From an uncultured archaeon (GTDB lineage: Archaea > Asgardarchaeota > Heimdallarchaeia > Heimdallarchaeales > Kariarchaeaceae), in NCBI GenBank assembly GCA_964645535.1, contig CAZYCQ010000053.1:1-23029 (forward strand): DNA of 23,029 nt, written 5' to 3'. The position numbers were made by a program, and so were the translations under genes. Shown here one piece after another: positions 15,518-22,412 of the stretch; within the stretch, counting starts at the first letter, position 1, and each line of letters opens with the position of its first letter. The notes under the pieces are model-generated. The model was not told the DNA's origin. It made no database searches and worked only from the letters and a program-made list of their open reading frames with translations.

Positions 15518-15931
15518 ATGACAATAATGATTGAATCCAATGACCCAGAAATTTCCACCCTTGTGATCACTGATTTGGCCAAGAATGCAGTACTCAAAGC
15601 AGTTGAAAACATTGATCATGAATGGTATCTCCGAATCTTTGTCCAGAATTCACCAAGAGGTCTCCAATATGCAATGGCGATCGATACCCGAATTCATTCA
15701 CAGGATGAAGTGTTTGATATCGATAACATGAAGGTAGTGATAGACAACATCAGTTTCCCTTTCGTCAAAGGTGCAACCGTCGATTTTGTTGATTCAGGAC
15801 AATCATCCGGCTTTAAAATCACCAACCCTTATGTTGATCTTTCTGCCATTGGCGGTAGCTGCTGCTCCGGTGGTTCATGCGGAGGGGGAAGTTGTGGTGG
15901 GGGGTCATGTGGCTCTGGTGGTTGTTGCTAG
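15518..15931 (+). CDS. HesB/IscA/ErpA (A-type Fe-S carrier) family protein with atypical Cys/Gly-rich tail
   Basis: ITDLAK, LRIFVQ, QYAMAID and VVIDNISFPFVKGATVDFVD...SGFKITNP match the A-type carrier core. The Cys pattern is non-canonical (see findings). Confidence 0.85.
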   Translation: MTIMIESNDPEISTLVITDLAKNAVLKAVENIDHEWYLRIFVQNSPRGLQYAMAIDTRIHSQDEVFDIDNMKVVIDNISFPFVKGATVDFVDSGQSSGFKITNPYVDLSAIGGSCCSGGSCGGGSCGGGSCGSGGCC

Positions 15932-16725
15932 AAACTGCTTCTTCGTTTGATCATCCGATCCGTCGTGAAAACAGTCACATCATGTAATTCCTGCTTGTTG
16001 ACCAAATCCAAGATCAATTGTGTCACTTGATCCTCTGGCAACCCGAACTCCTCCGCCAGATCTTCAAAATGAATGCTTTCCGCCCCCTCCTCCCATCTTT
16101 TCTTGACATGCTCAATAAGGAGCTCCGGAACTTCATCCCGATGCATCAATCTTCCACTCTTGAACCTGACCACAGGACTTTTCTCCTGAACCAACCAATC
16201 CCCGACAAGCTCCTCCAAAACTTCTCGATACTCCATATCCGCCAAGATGTCCTCGAGAGTATGTTCTTCCTCCAATAGGTCGTATGAAGACAATCTGCTT
16301 TCCCAAAGACGGCGAAGGTATGGTAGATAGAACACATGTGTTTCTGTGAAATGGTAATCGTTCAACTTCTGCTTCCGTTTCAATTCATCCTTCAGCGCTA
16401 TGATGGATCGTTTCTTTGAGAGCTGAAGTTTCTCCGAAATTTTTTCGATGGAAACAGGGTTTTTCCTTACCTCTTCAAGAATCTCATTGAAAATGGGTGT
16501 CGGATCTCCTGGTATGAACCACCCCTTCTTCCCAACAAAACGTCCCGCAATCCTCTTGGAATGCACTAGTTCCTTCATCACTTTCAAAAGAACTTCTGGT
16601 TCAACAGGGCTTTCTTCAAGTGATGTGATCTGAACAGGCCGTTCAAACCTGTAATTCAAGAGGAATTCTTCAGCCTTCTGCTCCGGAGATTTTCCCTTGC
16701 CGAAGATTTTCTTGAAAAATGACAT
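15928..16725 (-). CDS. Hypothetical tandem winged-helix (PCI/UFL1/DDRGK1-like) protein
   Basis: Likely start MSFFKKIFG (ATG at 16725; the ORF extends to 16776). Repeated WH-like segments: KELVHSKRIAGRFVGKKGWFIP, VSIEKISEKLQLS, SIHFEDLAEEFGLPEDQVTQLILDLVNKQEL. Confidence 0.65.
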   Translation of the reverse strand: MSFFKKIFGKGKSPEQKAEEFLLNYRFERPVQITSLEESPVEPEVLLKVMKELVHSKRIAGRFVGKKGWFIPGDPTPIFNEILEEVRKNPVSIEKISEKLQLSKKRSIIALKDELKRKQKLNDYHFTETHVFYLPYLRRLWESRLSSYDLLEEEHTLEDILADMEYREVLEELVGDWLVQEKSPVVRFKSGRLMHRDEVPELLIEHVKKRWEEGAESIHFEDLAEEFGLPEDQVTQLILDLVNKQELHDVTVFTTDRMIKRRSSF

Positions 16726-16798
16726 GAGTCTCTTTTTTCTTGGTTTTACAAATATATTGCGATCAAACTCCTCCAATACCCCAATTGCGTTGTGTCAT

Positions 16799-16951
16799 TG
16801 CGCACCTGCGCATTGTGCATCTGCGCATTTATCTCTGCGCATCTGCGCAGTATTGTGCACTTGCGCATAATCGCGCATCTGCGCATAAGGGGTCTGCGCA
16901 CCTTGCGCACTGCGCACCTTGCGCAGTTCCTGCACATTTCCATAACGCGCA
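16799..16951. repeat. Intergenic array of TGCGCA palindromes arranged as paired units
   Basis: 11 exact TGCGCA at 16799, 16807, 16822, 16836, 16844, 16862, 16880, 16895, 16904, 16911 and 16920. Five one-mismatch copies: TGTGCA at 16814 and 16854, CGCGCA at 16872 and 16946, TGCACA at 16931. Confidence 0.95.
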
Positions 16952-17059
16952 TCCTTCCATTTGGTTCCCAGAGAATCAATCCATTTAGGGAATAATGTCT
17001 CCTTTACGGAGTTACATTTTTTAAGAACGGTGCACATAATGAAAATGACTGGTGATCAA

Positions 17060-17293
17060 ATGGCAAAGGCATATGTTTTGATTAACACCGATGTAGGAAA
17101 GGAAGATGAGGTTCTTGAAAAAATCAAGTCCTTCAACGGCATTGAAGACGCCCATGTAGTCTATGGAACGTACGACATGATCGTCAAGGTGAAAGCAAAA
17201 GACCAAGCTGAACTCAAACAAACAATTCTGAAACAATTCAGGGTTCTGGACAGCCTTCGTGGTACCATTACATTGATTGCCGTTGATGACTAA
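17060..17293 (+). CDS. Stand-alone Lrp/AsnC ligand-binding (RAM) domain protein
   Basis: MAKAYVLINTDVGKEDEV...AHVVYGTYDMIVKV...GTITLI, 77 aa with no HTH. An archaeal SD (GGTGA at 17051-17055) supports the ATG at 17060 rather than the longer ORF start. Confidence 0.9.
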   Translation: MAKAYVLINTDVGKEDEVLEKIKSFNGIEDAHVVYGTYDMIVKVKAKDQAELKQTILKQFRVLDSLRGTITLIAVDD

Positions 17294-18180
17294 TCCCTAA
17301 ATTCAAGCCTAATTATCCAAAAGTTTGCCAATAATATAAGTGCCATCCCTAATAATGCTTGAGGAGAAGGCATTACTCCCCGAAAAATATCGATAATTAA
17401 TGCAAATAAAGGTTCCAAGGCAAATATGATCGCAATATGGGCCGAATTTACCCCTGCCTTCTGGGCATAGGTTTGAGAGACAAATGCAAATGCAGTTGCA
17501 AGGATTGCAGTAACCATCAATGTAATCCATACTATCCGGTCAACTTCCAACGTCTGTAATGGATTCCAAAAGGTTCCACGGACAATTGAAACAATGAGGG
17601 ATTCAAATGCAACAACAAACAACTGAACCATCACTAAGGCTTGAGGATCTAAATCCCGTGCCTGTTCAGTAAACAATACATGAAAAGCCACTGCAATGGC
17701 TGTTAGTACGATAATCGCATCCCCTACATAAATCTCAAGATTTTCAAAATCTAGCGTGAGAAATCCTAACCCTGCCAATGAAATCATTGCCACCACTATT
17801 TCAATTGGTCGTAACCTTCCCCTGAAAGGTGGAAGTAAAGCCAAAAATGGAACAAAAACCACATTTAATCCTGTAATGAATGCTGCCTTTGCAGGAGTTG
17901 TCATGGTCAAACCAACTGTCTGAAACCAAAAAGAGCCATAAAGTAGGGTGCCTAACAAAATGGAATACCCCAGCAATCTTTTCTCAAATTTCACTTTCTG
18001 AATGTTTAAGGGAAGAAGAATTAATCCTCCAAAAAGGAACCTTACTGTCAAAAATCCATCCAAAGGAATTATGCTTACCGTTTCTTTTACAAGAAAAAAA
18101 GTGGATCCCCAAAAAAATGTGGTAAGGATTAAGGAAATTATTCCGATTTGTTTACGTGTAAATCCCACACCATTTTTCAA
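17290..18180 (-). CDS. DMT superfamily (EamA) transporter
   Basis: FWGSTFFLVK, VRFLFG, FQTVGLTMTTPAKAAFITGLNVVFVP, GDAIIV, ATAFAFVSQTYAQK and IFALEPLFA, with about 10 TM helices. Confidence 0.92.
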   Translation of the reverse strand: MKNGVGFTRKQIGIISLILTTFFWGSTFFLVKETVSIIPLDGFLTVRFLFGGLILLPLNIQKVKFEKRLLGYSILLGTLLYGSFWFQTVGLTMTTPAKAAFITGLNVVFVPFLALLPPFRGRLRPIEIVVAMISLAGLGFLTLDFENLEIYVGDAIIVLTAIAVAFHVLFTEQARDLDPQALVMVQLFVVAFESLIVSIVRGTFWNPLQTLEVDRIVWITLMVTAILATAFAFVSQTYAQKAGVNSAHIAIIFALEPLFALIIDIFRGVMPSPQALLGMALILLANFWIIRLEFRD

Positions 18181-18199
18181 TCATTATGATTAAATTGTC

Positions 18200-18493
18200 T
18201 TACTCTGGTGTAAAGATTTCTATGTGAATTTCGGGAACAACCGCTTTGCAAATCTTCCGAACTCCATGATCGCCAGGTTCATATCTGCATTCAACCAATT
18301 TGGCCTTTTCAAGATGTTTGACCTGTGCACTGATATTGGCCTCAGTTTGATCTAAAGCCCGTGCCAACTTGCTTATATCATACTCGTCGTCTGCCAATAA
18401 TTGGAGAATTTTGAAGCGTGTGGGGGAAGACATTGCTTTTGTTATTGCAATAATTTTATCTTGATCTGTTCGCTTGAGTTGTATCTTCTTCAT
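18200..18493 (-). CDS. ArsR-family winged-helix transcriptional regulator
   Basis: KAMSSPTRFKILQLL...ISKLARALDQTEANISAQVKHLEKAKLV...HGVRKIC. AAGGAG SD upstream. Lies 19 bp upstream of the EamA gene on the same strand. Confidence 0.9.
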   Translation of the reverse strand: MKKIQLKRTDQDKIIAITKAMSSPTRFKILQLLADDEYDISKLARALDQTEANISAQVKHLEKAKLVECRYEPGDHGVRKICKAVVPEIHIEIFTPE

Positions 18494-18809
18494 GGCAATC
18501 TCCTTGTTTTAGCTAGATTTTCATTCATTGAGTGATTATTTAAATCTTTCATTATAATGCGATTGTTTCAAATATTTAGCGCTACTTTGAGAGATATGTC
18601 TGGTAAATTAATCGTTTAATCATCTCTCACAACTATTGGTACTTCAACAAATTATGATTTTTATTATTAAACTCCTAAATCATCAATATTGTCTTATTGA
18701 ATGCCCATTTCATGCCTTAAAAGGGTTGTTCTGCTTTCTTCTCATGATACTAAGCAAAATCTCGTTTCATTGAATTAGATTTTTTATGGTGAGAATCGGT
18801 TGATGATCA

Positions 18810-19343
18810 ATGAGAAATTTTGTTCATATCCCAGAACATGTTCAAGTCAAAATCAGGGAGGAAGACTTGAACCATTTCACTGCTTTACTTGATATCATGG
18901 GTTTCTCATTCACTCCAATTCAGATATTTCGTCCTGGGGCACTTTATTCCAAAATCAAAACTGAACGATTTCAAGGAAAGGACGTTGAACTCCATGTTCG
19001 TGTCTACCAAAATGGTGTCATCACCTCGGAATTTGAACCTAAACGTTTGAAACATCCCTTGGACCACATCTTTTCGAGAAGTTATTCTGCGCATGAATGG
19101 GTGATCTCAAAATTGGAAAAATTCGGAATCCCCTACGAGGTCGATGAAGGGATTAGATTCACCTATAACCTTCATGCACCTACCACTTTCCCCAAACATC
19201 CTTCTGAACTTTTCAAATGGCTTTGGGGCTGTATCTATTATGTACCATTGGCCATGATATGGCATGGTTGGCGTTATTTGAAGATGGTTGCCGCCGCGAC
19301 CTATCGATCATCATTAATGAAACTAATGTCCTTGTTAAGGTAA
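18810..19343 (+). CDS. Hypothetical protein with C-terminal hydrophobic/amphipathic segment
   Basis: 177-aa ORF filling the space between the ArsR gene and the ATCGAT array, followed by an oligo-T tract. Contains ELHVRVY...EFEP...HPLDH. No family recognised with confidence. Confidence 0.7.
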   Translation: MRNFVHIPEHVQVKIREEDLNHFTALLDIMGFSFTPIQIFRPGALYSKIKTERFQGKDVELHVRVYQNGVITSEFEPKRLKHPLDHIFSRSYSAHEWVISKLEKFGIPYEVDEGIRFTYNLHAPTTFPKHPSELFKWLWGCIYYVPLAMIWHGWRYLKMVAAATYRSSLMKLMSLLR

Positions 19344-19357
19344 TTCCCGAAATTCAA

Positions 19358-19366
19358 TTTTTTTTT
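19358..19366 (+). terminator. Putative archaeal oligo-T terminator
   Basis: T9 run 15 nt after the stop of 18810-19343, followed by further T tracts. Confidence 0.5.
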
Positions 19367-19491
19367 CTCTGACCTTGTTCCGTTTGAATATAGCTCCTGC
19401 CTTTTTTCCGGTTGTTTTTCTATTTCTGTCTAGAAGGGCATTTCTTGTTTTGATTCAAACATGTTTTTTCAGTGATGTTTTTTCATCATCC

Positions 19492-19738
19492 ATCGATGAA
19501 ATCATCGATTTGATTAATCGCGTTGTTATCGATGATTGATGATTTTATCATCGTTCATCGATGGTGTTTTTGTGATGATTTCATCGATAACTCCTGATAT
19601 TTTTAAGTTATGGTGGCTTATTCGACATCATCGATAAATCATCGTTAATTTTCTTCGATGATTTTTCATTCATCGATCATCGATAAGTGTGGTTCAAAAT
19701 CCAAACGATATGTTAATTTCAGTGGAATTCATCGATGA
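19492..19738. repeat. Intergenic array of (TC)ATCGAT(GA) palindromes
   Basis: 9 exact ATCGAT at 19492, 19504, 19528, 19557, 19583, 19630, 19672, 19679 and 19731. Variants include ATTGAT 19535, ATCGTT 19550 and 19641, TTCGAT 19654 and AACGAT 19704. Consensus TCATCGATRA, with a perfect TCATCGATGA at 19729-19738. Confidence 0.92.
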
Positions 19739-19741
19739 CAC

Positions 19742-20197
19742 ATGCATGTTTCCCACCATGTTGTTCGGTTCAGTGACACCGATGCCGCTGGTATTCTTTA
19801 CTTTGGTTCTTTTGCAACCTATTTTGATGAATCATTCCTTAGCGCTCTTCGATCACAAGGCATCGGATGGGACGAACACAAAAAGTACAACTTTCTCCTC
19901 CCGATTGTTGAACACAAGACTCGATTTTTTCATCCGTTGAAATTTGGAGATGAGGTTTCTGTTTATTGCTGGATCTCAAGGATTGGGAAAACATCATTCA
20001 CAAGTAAACATGTTATGATCCATAAAGAAACCGCCAAAATCTGTGCTACTGGTTATATAACACGAGTTGTAGTTGATTACTCACAATTTGTCAAGTCAGA
20101 AATCCCTTCAGAACTGCTGAAAATCCTCAATCATTTTTCAGAATTGCCGGAAAATCTCCCTGATGCTGTAAAGTCTGCGTTTATTGATGAAGTTTAA
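19742..20197 (+). CDS. Hot-dog fold acyl-CoA thioesterase (4HBT/YbgC-like, resembles DHNA-CoA thioesterases)
   Basis: VRFSDTDAAGILYFGSF catalytic-Asp motif, LPIVEHKTRFFHPLKFGD and IGKTSF. Confidence 0.9.
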   Translation: MHVSHHVVRFSDTDAAGILYFGSFATYFDESFLSALRSQGIGWDEHKKYNFLLPIVEHKTRFFHPLKFGDEVSVYCWISRIGKTSFTSKHVMIHKETAKICATGYITRVVVDYSQFVKSEIPSELLKILNHFSELPENLPDAVKSAFIDEV

Positions 20198-22412
20198 AAT
20201 CCAAATCGAATTTCTTCTTTTGTGTTTTGAACTCATTCGGTCCTACCTGTTCAAAACTGGATGGCGTTTCCTTAACCTGTGAAGGTAGAAAGACAATGAG
20301 TGATTTCGGCCCATTATAATGGACTTTGAGATGAAGGATGTCGTTTTCCAATTTAGCTTCTAGAAGTGCCATTTCACCATTTTCCATCAATAAGCCTTCC
20401 AATTTCACACCTTTGGTCAGCCAATCGGTTGGCATTCCTTTCAGTAGGATAGGATCTGATCCTCTTGTTTCCTCAACAAACAGATCTAAGATCAAATTAA
20501 CGAACTCTGCAGCAGCATATCCATTGGGGGAGTTTCCAACAGCACCTGTTTTGAAAGTCGGTGATATGCCTTCTGCCCATCCCTGTTCATTTGTCTTGTT
20601 CTTGACAAGGAAATCAATGATCTCCTGTACTCGGTCAAAATGCAGATAGGTTCGACAAACCTGAGCTAACTGCATACTGTAATAGGTACCATACGCGTTC
20701 CAAGGTTGATGGATCATCAGTCCTCCCTGATGGACATAGTTCTTCCAGACATGTTCATAGGTGTCTGCGATTGGTTTAAATTCTTTGGAAAATGCCCTCA
20801 GGGGATAAATTGCTGCAAGATTGAAAAAAATCAGGGAATTTTCGTCCATATCCGGACCAGCAGTCAAAACTCCGAATTCATTGAAATTTCTCGCAAATAC
20901 ATCTGCTAAACTATCATAAATTTTCTCAGCCTCCCGTTCCATTTTTTCTTGTTCTCCTTTTCTGCCCAATATTCCCCAAAGTTTTCCTGTTTCCTTGATG
21001 GCACTGTATGCCCATAAATTATGCACAAAGAGTTGGTGTTTTTCTTGGAACATCTTGTTGAAAAATGGTGTAAAGCCTGGTGGTAAAAATTCATCCGTGG
21101 ATTCCTTGGATTTTGCAACTCGGGCTTTTGCAATGGTTTCGGTTATTTTTTTGAGTATCGGTAATTTCTCCCCCAGCCACGAAGCATCTCCCGTGAAATG
21201 ATAATGTGATGATATCGAGAACAAAATGGATCCCAAAGCATCAAATTGTTCATGATCTGACAGGTATTCCTCATCCTTCACTATGTCAAGACAGTTGTTG
21301 AGAATATCCGAAACAAAATCAAATCCCAATCTATCAAGTGCTTTGGTTTCAGAATAGAGGGCTTGTGGCCATACCACGTCTTGTGACCCTGGACCGAAGG
21401 TAACAACATTGTTTACCACATCTGTAAGCAATCTTAGAACTATCGCGGAATTGTAATAAAGTTGGTCTACCTCATCATTTCCCGTTTGCAATCGTGGCAA
21501 GTTTTCCATTTCATCTTCCCATTTTTCCTCAATATCATCGGTATCGATCTCTTCTTTCAAGTCTCCTTTTAGAAGGATATTCAATTGAGGTTTTGATCTC
21601 ACTGGAAATGATGCGGCCCAAGTGGCAAATTTTGCTTCACATGTCACGCTGTTTTCAGACGATCTCGATTTTCCAATCCATTTTCCGGCATGACCTTGAC
21701 GTATGGGCAGTACCAGAAATTCCACGGGATGGGAAAACAAGAAAATGGACGGATGTCCTGAGATATCTAAAAGGCCTTCTTTAGGATGGTAAACAATAGT
21801 TTCAATTTCTGTGAGCCCATCTTGGTCAAATGGGGAAATGGACATGTAAAGTGGATGATCCGCAAATCCTCTGATAACATTGACTCCCAATGTCTCATTT
21901 CCTTCCTCATCCACCAATACTCCACATTCGTAGGTGAGAACATCTCCATCGATCTTCCACTCAACGAAAGCTATCGGATATCCGTCGGAATGGAGTTCAA
22001 CTTTTACCTCTCCAGATTCTGAAGAATACACTGGTGAATTATCCACAACCGTTCCAAACAAAAGCGTATAGGAATTTGGTTTGGGGATTATACCTCCCCG
22101 ATGATCCACTAATGGTTCAATGGTTGAATCAGGATCCCCAAGGGCAATAAAGCCTCTCAAGTTCTGGTTTGCAATGATGGGTATCTCAGCCATACTAGTT
22201 GCCAGAGGGCTGTTCGGATCCAATTGATCGCCTGCCCAAGAAGGTAAAACCAAGGTTTTCTTTCCTTTCAGGATGTACTGTCTTGTCAACCATGCATTCA
22301 GCAATCGTTCCTTATGTGCTCTAACTGTCTCTGGAGTGAAAATGGTATCCTTTCCTCGAATTTTCAATGCTCTTTGAAGATAATCTTGAAAGTCCTCGGT
22401 GTTTAAATCCAC
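20181..22412 (-). CDS. Six-hairpin glycosidase-like ((alpha/alpha)6 barrel) protein, possibly catalytically degenerate
   Basis: 743 aa with a beta-rich N-terminal half and helical C-terminal half. Contains EQFDALGSILFSISSHYHFTGDASWL, HNLWAYSAI and WAEG...GYAAAEF, segments typical of GH15/GH63-like barrels. GTG start. Confidence 0.65.
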   Translation of the reverse strand: MDLNTEDFQDYLQRALKIRGKDTIFTPETVRAHKERLLNAWLTRQYILKGKKTLVLPSWAGDQLDPNSPLATSMAEIPIIANQNLRGFIALGDPDSTIEPLVDHRGGIIPKPNSYTLLFGTVVDNSPVYSSESGEVKVELHSDGYPIAFVEWKIDGDVLTYECGVLVDEEGNETLGVNVIRGFADHPLYMSISPFDQDGLTEIETIVYHPKEGLLDISGHPSIFLFSHPVEFLVLPIRQGHAGKWIGKSRSSENSVTCEAKFATWAASFPVRSKPQLNILLKGDLKEEIDTDDIEEKWEDEMENLPRLQTGNDEVDQLYYNSAIVLRLLTDVVNNVVTFGPGSQDVVWPQALYSETKALDRLGFDFVSDILNNCLDIVKDEEYLSDHEQFDALGSILFSISSHYHFTGDASWLGEKLPILKKITETIAKARVAKSKESTDEFLPPGFTPFFNKMFQEKHQLFVHNLWAYSAIKETGKLWGILGRKGEQEKMEREAEKIYDSLADVFARNFNEFGVLTAGPDMDENSLIFFNLAAIYPLRAFSKEFKPIADTYEHVWKNYVHQGGLMIHQPWNAYGTYYSMQLAQVCRTYLHFDRVQEIIDFLVKNKTNEQGWAEGISPTFKTGAVGNSPNGYAAAEFVNLILDLFVEETRGSDPILLKGMPTDWLTKGVKLEGLLMENGEMALLEAKLENDILHLKVHYNGPKSLIVFLPSQVKETPSSFEQVGPNEFKTQKKKFDLDFKLHQ

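Follow-up and report, generated by a model that had tools for sequence, protein, structure and literature searches.

Two conserved arrays of short CG-centred palindromes bracket a four-gene module in a Kariarchaeaceae genome

Introduction

Why would two intergenic regions of an archaeal chromosome, 2.5 kb apart, each be packed with copies of a different 6-bp palindrome? We address this question for a 23,029-nucleotide stretch of DNA (the window; positions 1 to 23,029 of contig CAZYCQ010000053.1, assembly GCA_964645535.1) from an uncultured archaeon of the Asgard family Kariarchaeaceae. One region holds 11 copies of TGCGCA (array 1) and the other holds nine copies of ATCGAT (array 2). Between them lie genes for a stand-alone RAM domain (the ligand-binding domain of Lrp/AsnC regulators, here without the rest of the protein), an EamA-family transporter, an ArsR-like winged helix-turn-helix (wHTH) protein, and a hypothetical protein of 177 amino acids (hyp177). 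The original prediction had described both the packing of each block with one CG-centred palindrome and the genes that they bracket, and it was right on both points. On balance, we favour the view that both arrays are homotypic clusters of operator-type binding sites for dimeric DNA-binding proteins, located in gene control regions. The arrays are real, selected, and specific to this locus; they are not part of a general genomic system, and they are not linked to restriction or to a replication origin.

Asgard archaea are the closest prokaryotic relatives of eukaryotes, and to our knowledge almost nothing is known about how they regulate their genes. With their 9-13 sites in 130-250 bp, the arrays are conserved and unique, and each provides a clear DNA bait with which to look for new Asgard DNA-binding proteins. 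If they are ordinary operators, then this is a useful and unsurprising annotation; if they act as boundaries or as titration sinks for a regulator, then they would represent a new regulatory layout for archaea. The rest of the window is ordinary chromosome, with genes for NAD synthesis, ThyX, Nre, and transporters, along with one PCI-domain gene.

Both words are concentrated at one place each

TGCGCA occurs 12 times in the window, and 11 of these copies lie within 127 bp (16799-16925), where about 0.06 copies would be expected from composition. Shuffled sequences had 2.76 copies on average and 8 at most. ATCGAT occurs 24 times in the window (shuffles: mean 8.7, maximum 15), and nine copies lie within 245 bp (19492-19736). 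The arrays consist of:

16799..16925, no strand: core of array 1, with 11 exact copies of TGCGCA, mostly in pairs of the form TGCGCA-N1-3-TGCGCA
16814..16951, no strand: degenerate copies in array 1, from a one-mismatch scan (TGTGCA at 16814 and 16854, CGCGCA at 16872 and 16946, TGCACA at 16931)
19492..19736, no strand: array 2, with nine exact copies of ATCGAT, extended consensus TCATCGATGA, and many TCATC/GATGA half-sites between the copies

The five one-mismatch copies stretch array 1 as far as 16951.

To ask how unusual these clusters are, we used the genome that the window comes from (G000; 3.6 Mb in 176 contigs, 41% G+C; names such as C29 are contigs of this genome unless another genome is named). 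TGCGCA has only 237 copies in all of it. We ranked clusters of every palindromic 6-mer and 8-mer across the genome with a scan statistic. With CRISPR (clustered regularly interspaced short palindromic repeat) arrays set aside, array 1 ranked first (E ~1e-25) and array 2 second (E ~7e-10). The next-ranked clusters are CRISPR arrays (C58:18759-19985, C74:11764-13236, C115:651-1185, and C98:7882-8104), with at least two types of repeat, starting with TCGCGAGAGC and with TCTAGAC. Arrays 1 and 2 differ from these genuine CRISPR arrays, as their units are 6-10 bp and their linkers are irregular (1-150 bp). Nor do they look like dispersed repeats such as miniature inverted-repeat transposable elements, another origin that had been considered: there is one TGCGCA array per genome, and the arrays cannot be aligned as units between genomes.

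Just three palindrome arrays in the genome are not CRISPR arrays. The third is built of TTATCGATAA, which is of the ATCGAT type and CG-centred, and it has 4-5 copies and a direct repeat of 22 bp at either end (C29:34100-34349, or L030:4101-4350). This C29 array overlaps the stop codon of an open reading frame (ORF) for a PAC4-like protein of 151 amino acids, lies in the convergent gap after a Pyr_redox_3 gene, and is 0.6 kb from a second RAM-only gene. We found no paralogy between hyp177 and the gene that adjoins the C29 array.

The two arrays were said to share an architecture. This is true in that each has one palindrome, and it is not true of the spacing. Array 1 is dense: pooled over the five genomes that have it (see below), neighbouring exact copies of TGCGCA are 7-9 bp apart in 19 of 44 cases and 12-15 bp apart in another 16, with a mode of 8 bp. 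Many of the gaps are 12-34 bp and are off a strict 7-8 bp register. No other exact pair of TGCGCA at 7-9 bp exists in the genome; there are only five copies of such a pair with one mismatch elsewhere. The bases next to the hexamer are unconstrained. Array 2 is sparse, with irregular distances of 7-156 bp, and its true unit is the 10-bp palindrome TCATCGATGA (the flanking positions are T in 31 of 42 copies, C in 28, G in 25, and A in 30).

The linkers were also described as non-repetitive, and mostly they are. The exception is array 1, in which Tandem Repeats Finder detects a degenerate repeat of period 8 (consensus TGCGCATC, 15.8 copies, 64% matches), and which contains a perfect 16-bp duplication as well as higher-order repeats of 15 and 18 bp.

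Related genomes have the same words at the same places

We read the orthologous loci in three congeneric species (G001, G002, and G003) and in two closer relatives, L069 (from GCA_027054415.1) and L071 (from a Logan assembly), both of which were reached via the hyp177 protein. This was a check that had been suggested, and it showed that each array recurs at its own locus in four to five other genomes from the genus. The gap that corresponds to array 1 has 11 copies of TGCGCA in G000, 13 in L069, 10 in L071, 10 in G002, and 5 in G003. The site that corresponds to array 2 has 9 copies of ATCGAT in G000, 7 in L069, 6 in L071, 7 in G002, 9 in G001, and 4 in G003. For both words, composition predicts about 0.06-0.16 copies in these gaps. 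The idea that the motif would turn over between relatives was not borne out: every genome that has an array has the same word in it.

The flanking proteins are 40-80% identical between these genomes, so neutral DNA ought to be scrambled. When the gaps are aligned, the promoter-proximal flanks match, as do the words, but nothing else does; the number of copies, their spacing, and the linkers are different from genome to genome. Because the words are kept while their number, spacing, and linkers vary, we conclude that selection acts on word content and not on one arrangement.

The genes around the arrays, as annotated with Pfam, are listed here; the start of the RAM-only gene was set by aligning its orthologues.

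15928..16725, minus strand: winged-helix/PCI-domain protein (PF01399, 1.7e-6), divergent from the RAM-only gene; orthologues found
17060..17293, plus strand: stand-alone RAM protein (Lrp/AsnC ligand-binding domain only); 98% identical in L069, 92% in L071, and 85% in G002
17290..18180, minus strand: EamA-family transporter (from domain annotation)
18200..18493, minus strand: ArsR-like wHTH protein of 97 amino acids; 98-99% identical in L069 and L071 and 93% in G002
18494..18809, no strand: divergent control region (316 bp, AT-rich) between the wHTH and hyp177 genes, with no palindrome array; the 110 bp beside the wHTH gene are conserved
18810..19343, plus strand: hypothetical protein of 177 amino acids (hyp177); an ATCGAT array lies 3' of the gene in all six genomes examined
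19742..20197, plus strand: 4HBT-type thioesterase, downstream of array 2
20181..22412, minus strand: protein of 743 amino acids with a GH15/GDE-like glycoside-hydrolase-type fold, a lead that comes from Atlas predicted models only

The 3' ends of the convergent RAM-only and EamA genes overlap by 4 bp (17290-17293). The wHTH and RAM-only proteins are far more conserved than the neighbouring proteins: both are 92-99% identical where the neighbours are 70-80% identical.

In G000, L069, L071, and G002, the order is TGCGCA array, RAM-only, EamA, wHTH, hyp177, ATCGAT array. In G003, the outer neighbours are different, and the RAM-only and EamA genes have been inverted together (L044:4948-6099), which places the TGCGCA array before EamA; the same four genes are still enclosed. 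Thus, the two arrays bracket these genes in all five genomes in which both arrays could be read. Since position is conserved and the same module is bracketed, we consider the arrays to be functional cis-elements and not noise.

Could they instead be degenerate minisatellites that slippage and local duplication maintain, and that have no function themselves? We give this reading little weight. The period-8 signal and the duplications within array 1 would fit it, as would the differences in copy number and arrangement from genome to genome, and so the suggestion that the arrays might be decayed tandem duplications was right to the extent that array 1 has undergone some local duplication. However, an exact 6-bp core with free linkers is the opposite of what copying of whole units would produce, and its persistence at the same sites over such deep divergence, between genomes that share just 40-60% identity in the flanking proteins, argues for selection. 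Irregular spacing also makes for a poor substrate for slippage. Array 2, which is the array that we compared in this way, is identical, in length and in sequence, when independent assemblies of the same strains (two and three) are compared; this array is thus not hypervariable.

Narrow distribution of the arrays

The original prediction envisaged a general system of palindrome islands, but the distribution of the arrays is narrow. Besides there being just three non-CRISPR arrays in the genome, triplets of TGCGCA were found in 3 genomes of a single genus among 83 genomes of the class, at this one locus, along with one unrelated tandem repeat. ATCGAT triplets are commoner (7 of the 11 genomes of the family), and much of that is noise. 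In 27 further genomes of the class, the 1.5 kb on either side of the wHTH gene contain no array. In two genomes from other genera, G004 and G007, the orthologous modules have no arrays. The C29-type array has a somewhat different distribution: G000, G002, and G007 have it, with a longer unit (ATCGATAATACCGATAT) in G007, and G003 lacks it.

In G009, which belongs to another genus of the same family, at least 11 contigs have clusters of ATCGAT or GATCGATC (for example, C307:781-849 and C332:1494-1540 of that genome). We do not consider these to be arrays of the same kind, as the genome looks generally rich in ATCGAT and GATC. This abundance may be reminiscent of the highly iterated palindromes of cyanobacteria. 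A broader search for dense TGCGCA triplets, in 185,579 genomes, was uninformative: among the matches listed, almost all are on bacterial contigs and one is from Methanobacteriaceae, and these loci were not inspected. Full-text searching of the literature turned up nothing on TGCGCA or ATCGAT words in archaea.

Positions of the arrays and a proposed operator role

The divergent winged-helix/PCI and RAM-only genes start at 16725 and 17060, respectively, and array 1 occupies the middle of the 334-bp gap that separates their ATG codons. On either side of the array is a conserved TATA-like box; the two boxes are 266 bp apart, and we take them to mark the two promoters. Array 2 begins 150 bp past the stop codon of the hyp177 gene and extends to the start of the thioesterase gene. 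The relevant sites are:

16751..16758, minus strand: putative promoter element of the winged-helix/PCI gene, a TATA-like box some 29 bp ahead of the start codon (ATG at 16725); the flank that holds it is conserved in both L069 and L071
17017..17024, plus strand: TATA-like box TTTTTTAA of the RAM-only gene, within a block of about 45 bp that is conserved in four genomes; putative promoter element
17051-17056, plus strand: GGTGAT, which precedes the RAM-only ATG at 17060
19729..19738, no strand: putative operator, a promoter-proximal copy of TCATCGATGA that is conserved in L069 and L071; on its two sides are the TATA-like GTTAATTT (19712-19719) and the start codon of the thioesterase gene (ATG at 19742)

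The block of about 45 bp (CGGAGTTACATTTTTTAAGAACGGTGYACATAA...GGTGAT, within 17000-17059) is near-identical across the four genomes. This is more than a TATA box needs, so there may be a separate operator in it.

We propose that each word is bound by its own sequence-specific protein, which is probably a dimer. Each site would carry little information (6 bp, or 10 bp for TCATCGATGA), but with many sites within 100-270 bp, dimers of weak specificity could bind cooperatively and coat the control region, and how strongly the flanking genes are expressed would then depend on this coat. Array 1 would act between the TATA-like boxes of the winged-helix/PCI and RAM-only genes or, in G003, between EamA and another gene. 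The last site of array 2, between the TATA-like box and the start codon of the thioesterase gene, would be at the usual position for an archaeal repressor. What we have observed directly is the enrichment of the words, their uniqueness, their position, and their retention during evolution; the binding of proteins, the cooperativity, and the regulatory outcome are what we infer from them.

Some known regulators are comparable. The MetJ repressor binds tandem 8-bp metboxes (AGACGTCT), which are palindromic and CG-centred, and omega of plasmid pSM19035 binds arrays of the heptad WATCACW. Both are operators for ribbon-helix-helix (RHH) proteins, with one dimer per unit in a head-to-tail register of 7-8 bp, and their specificity arises from cooperative binding to many weak sites. 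The period-8 consensus of array 1 (TGCGCATC) and its modal spacing of 8 bp are similar, and the TGCGCA copies may form a lattice of about 8 bp like the tandem boxes of RHH repressors. In contrast, metbox arrays have 2-5 strictly adjacent units, while here there are 10-16 units with irregular gaps. Also, the window ORFs include no RHH gene beside the arrays, and we did not search the whole genome for this family.

An analogy in archaea is TrpY from Methanothermobacter. Its TGTACA "TRP boxes" lie in the divergent region between trpY and trpE, and these copies of a 6-bp palindrome control both of the flanking genes. As in array 1, several copies of a 6-bp palindrome lie between divergent genes. 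TrpY has about 4 boxes as compared to 11-13 here, and it is encoded beside its boxes, whereas here no adjacent regulator fits.

Lrp/AsnC (feast/famine) proteins form complexes on many sites, as at pap and ilvIH in E. coli, with Ss-LrpB, and with FL11 of Pyrococcus, which has a RAM-only partner, DM1. These oligomers occupy sites over 100-150 bp, and here RAM-only genes lie beside array 1 and near the C29 array. Also, TGCGCA-N3-TGCGCA contains GCGCA-N3-TGCGC, which is a 5-3-5 inverted repeat as in Lrp/feast-famine sites, although we made this link post hoc. Known Lrp/AsnC sites differ in being 13-15 bp with AT-rich centres, and the five full-length Lrp genes of this genome are away from the arrays.

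Several observations weigh against the operator reading. First, we did not identify a cognate protein for either word among the candidates that we checked. The ArsR-like wHTH protein is the nearest DNA binder, and we rejected it as the binder of the arrays: its recognition helix does not change between genomes with and without arrays, and arrays are near the wHTH gene in this genus only. Similarly, neither TGCGCA nor ATCGAT recurs in the upstream regions of 30 wHTH orthologues. Second, other genera (G007 and G004) have the same genes without the arrays, so the arrays must be dispensable for basic expression; the gaps in G007 are short. Third, array 2 follows the 3' end of the hyp177 gene even if the downstream gene is different, as in G003. 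Fourth, in three genomes, the C29 array is in a gap between convergent genes, which is not where one expects a promoter. Finally, the linkers of ATCGAT-type arrays are T-rich and A-poor on one strand (T 37-51%, A 15-28%), with the orientation flipped in G001 and G007. Three of these observations (the convergent position of the C29 array, the association of array 2 with the 3' end of hyp177, and the asymmetry of the linkers) keep alive two other readings, in which the arrays are boundaries or roadblocks or are transcribed.

Possible boundaries, roadblocks, or titration sinks

If the arrays are sites for loading a protein, but do not act via the adjacent promoter, then the coat would mark both ends of the module, and the arrays would be a roadblock or insulator, or a sink that titrates a regulator. 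We think that this is unlikely, but it would explain why the same four genes are bracketed in every genome with both arrays readable, including G003 with its changed outer flanks and its inverted RAM-EamA pair. It would also account for ATCGAT-type arrays at the 3' ends of genes. And the two top-ranked arrays of a 3.6-Mb genome are unlikely to be 2.5 kb apart by chance. On the other hand, we found no archaeal precedent in the literature that we searched, G007 has the same module without arrays, and the location of array 1 between two promoters and the overlap of TCATCGATGA with the start region of the thioesterase gene fit with ordinary regulation.

A more specific version is that the two arrays work as a pair of boundary elements, with a different protein coating each, and that they mark off and insulate a module of RAM-only sensor, exporter, and wHTH protein. 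We consider this version quite unlikely. If it were true, it would be a prokaryotic counterpart of the eukaryotic insulators that are built from clustered short sites. Clusters of TATCGATA or CGATA do resemble the sites of DREF and BEAF-32, but given that we found no BED-finger or bZIP protein, we regard the likeness as a coincidence.

Are the arrays transcribed?

The strand asymmetry of the linkers, and its flipping in G001 and G007, is as expected for an independent transcription unit. Such an RNA, with its many self-complementary words, might bind or sponge an RNA-binding protein or might pair with itself. Predicted folding energies are below those of shuffled sequences (z = -4.8 and -2.7), but this is automatic for repeated palindromes, and the frequency of the best fold is at most 0.03. 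Because the arrangement of the words is not conserved, the RNAs would have no structure in common. A search against Rfam gave just one match, at chance level, and the T-rich linkers would terminate archaeal transcription. We therefore think it very unlikely that the arrays work as RNA.

Restriction and methylation

Both words are CpG-centred and are classical targets of DNA methyltransferases, and a link to restriction sites or decoys had been suggested. If the words were restriction targets then they might be avoided across the genome. Using Markov observed/expected ratios (O/E), we found that neither is avoided (1.09 for TGCGCA and 1.03 for ATCGAT), in contrast to CTGCAG (0.32) and GGCC (0.58). 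The avoidance of the latter two suggests active or recent restriction with PstI-like and HaeIII-like specificity. The link to our two words is not borne out.

Methylation could still matter if a methyltransferase that acts on GCGC/TGCGCA or on ATCGAT/TCGA competes with a binding protein, so that the array is heritably on or off. Models for this include Dam and Lrp at pap and the GATC clusters at oriC. An Lrp-family ligand-domain gene does adjoin array 1, and the genome encodes two full-length C5-cytosine methyltransferases (C116:955-1893 and C6:61957-62886) and several N6/N4 methyltransferases. The specificity of these enzymes cannot be read from their sequences, as it is the catalytic core alone that matches M.HhaI and M.HaeIII. 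Most of the degenerate copies of TGCGCA are CpG transitions, which speaks for methylation, but CpG to TpG is the commonest change anyway, and G003 has TGAGCA transversions too. Together with the lack of depletion or enrichment of either word genome-wide, this leads us to view a methylation-read switch as a long shot.

A replication origin or centromere?

Two unique clusters of sites on either side of a 316-bp AT-rich gap might suggest a replication origin or a centromere-like segregation site, as had also been raised. We think that this is extremely unlikely. All three orc1/cdc6 genes of G000 are on other contigs, and those of G003 are on another contig or 55 kb away. Between 8 and 23 kb, the cumulative GC skew declines steadily and does not turn, although a 23-kb window makes this a weak test. 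The window contains no gene for a ParA/SegA-type ATPase or for a centromere-binding protein, the words are unlike origin recognition boxes, and sister genera lack the arrays.

Candidates for the binding proteins

Our leading guess for a binder, which is a tentative one, is an assembly of the Lrp/AsnC type that includes a RAM-only protein. Of the four RAM-only genes in the genome, two are near arrays (two of the three arrays, at 0.15-0.6 kb), which is a post-hoc observation. The simple rule that every RAM-only gene has an array upstream can be rejected, as two of the four do not have one. We also rejected a "split Lrp," in which the wHTH and RAM-only proteins would form a single regulator, because their genes are adjacent in just two genera.

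Within the module, the hyp177 protein matches no known fold and has no features of a DNA-binding protein. The 743-amino-acid protein was set aside as well: it looks like an enzyme of the GH15/GDE type and lacks DNA-binding features. It matches no Pfam family, and no sequence in PDB matches it below E = 0.1. Its nearest predicted structures are GH15/GDE-type (alpha/alpha)6 glycoside hydrolases and large families of bacterial hypothetical proteins, and its gene adjoins the module across genera.

The words themselves hint at binders of eukaryotic type (C/EBP-like for TTGCGCAA and DREF-like for TATCGATA). We rejected these too, as there was no BED finger and the only bZIP match was below the threshold. 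The BED-finger search did not match any control genome either, so that part of the result is uninformative.

Although the wHTH protein does not seem to bind the arrays, it is widespread. It is present as a single copy in 54 of the 83 genomes of the class, is 51-65% identical across families, and ends in a short tail that resembles a beta strand (PEIHIEIF). It would seem to be a core regulator in Asgard archaea.

Other clusters of short words

Two other clusters came to our attention. A cluster of the palindrome GTCATGAC (C22:1278-1400, or L031) is just upstream of an ORF for a protein of 191 amino acids that has no Pfam match, in G/T-rich sequence near the start of the contig. The other cluster has ten copies of the non-palindromic word AATACA (C46:25725-25964, or L032:3726-3965), and it lies in an A/C-rich gap of 340 bp between an ITPase-like (DUF84) gene and the gene for IMP dehydrogenase. 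It may be another homotypic array of sites, ahead of a purine gene.

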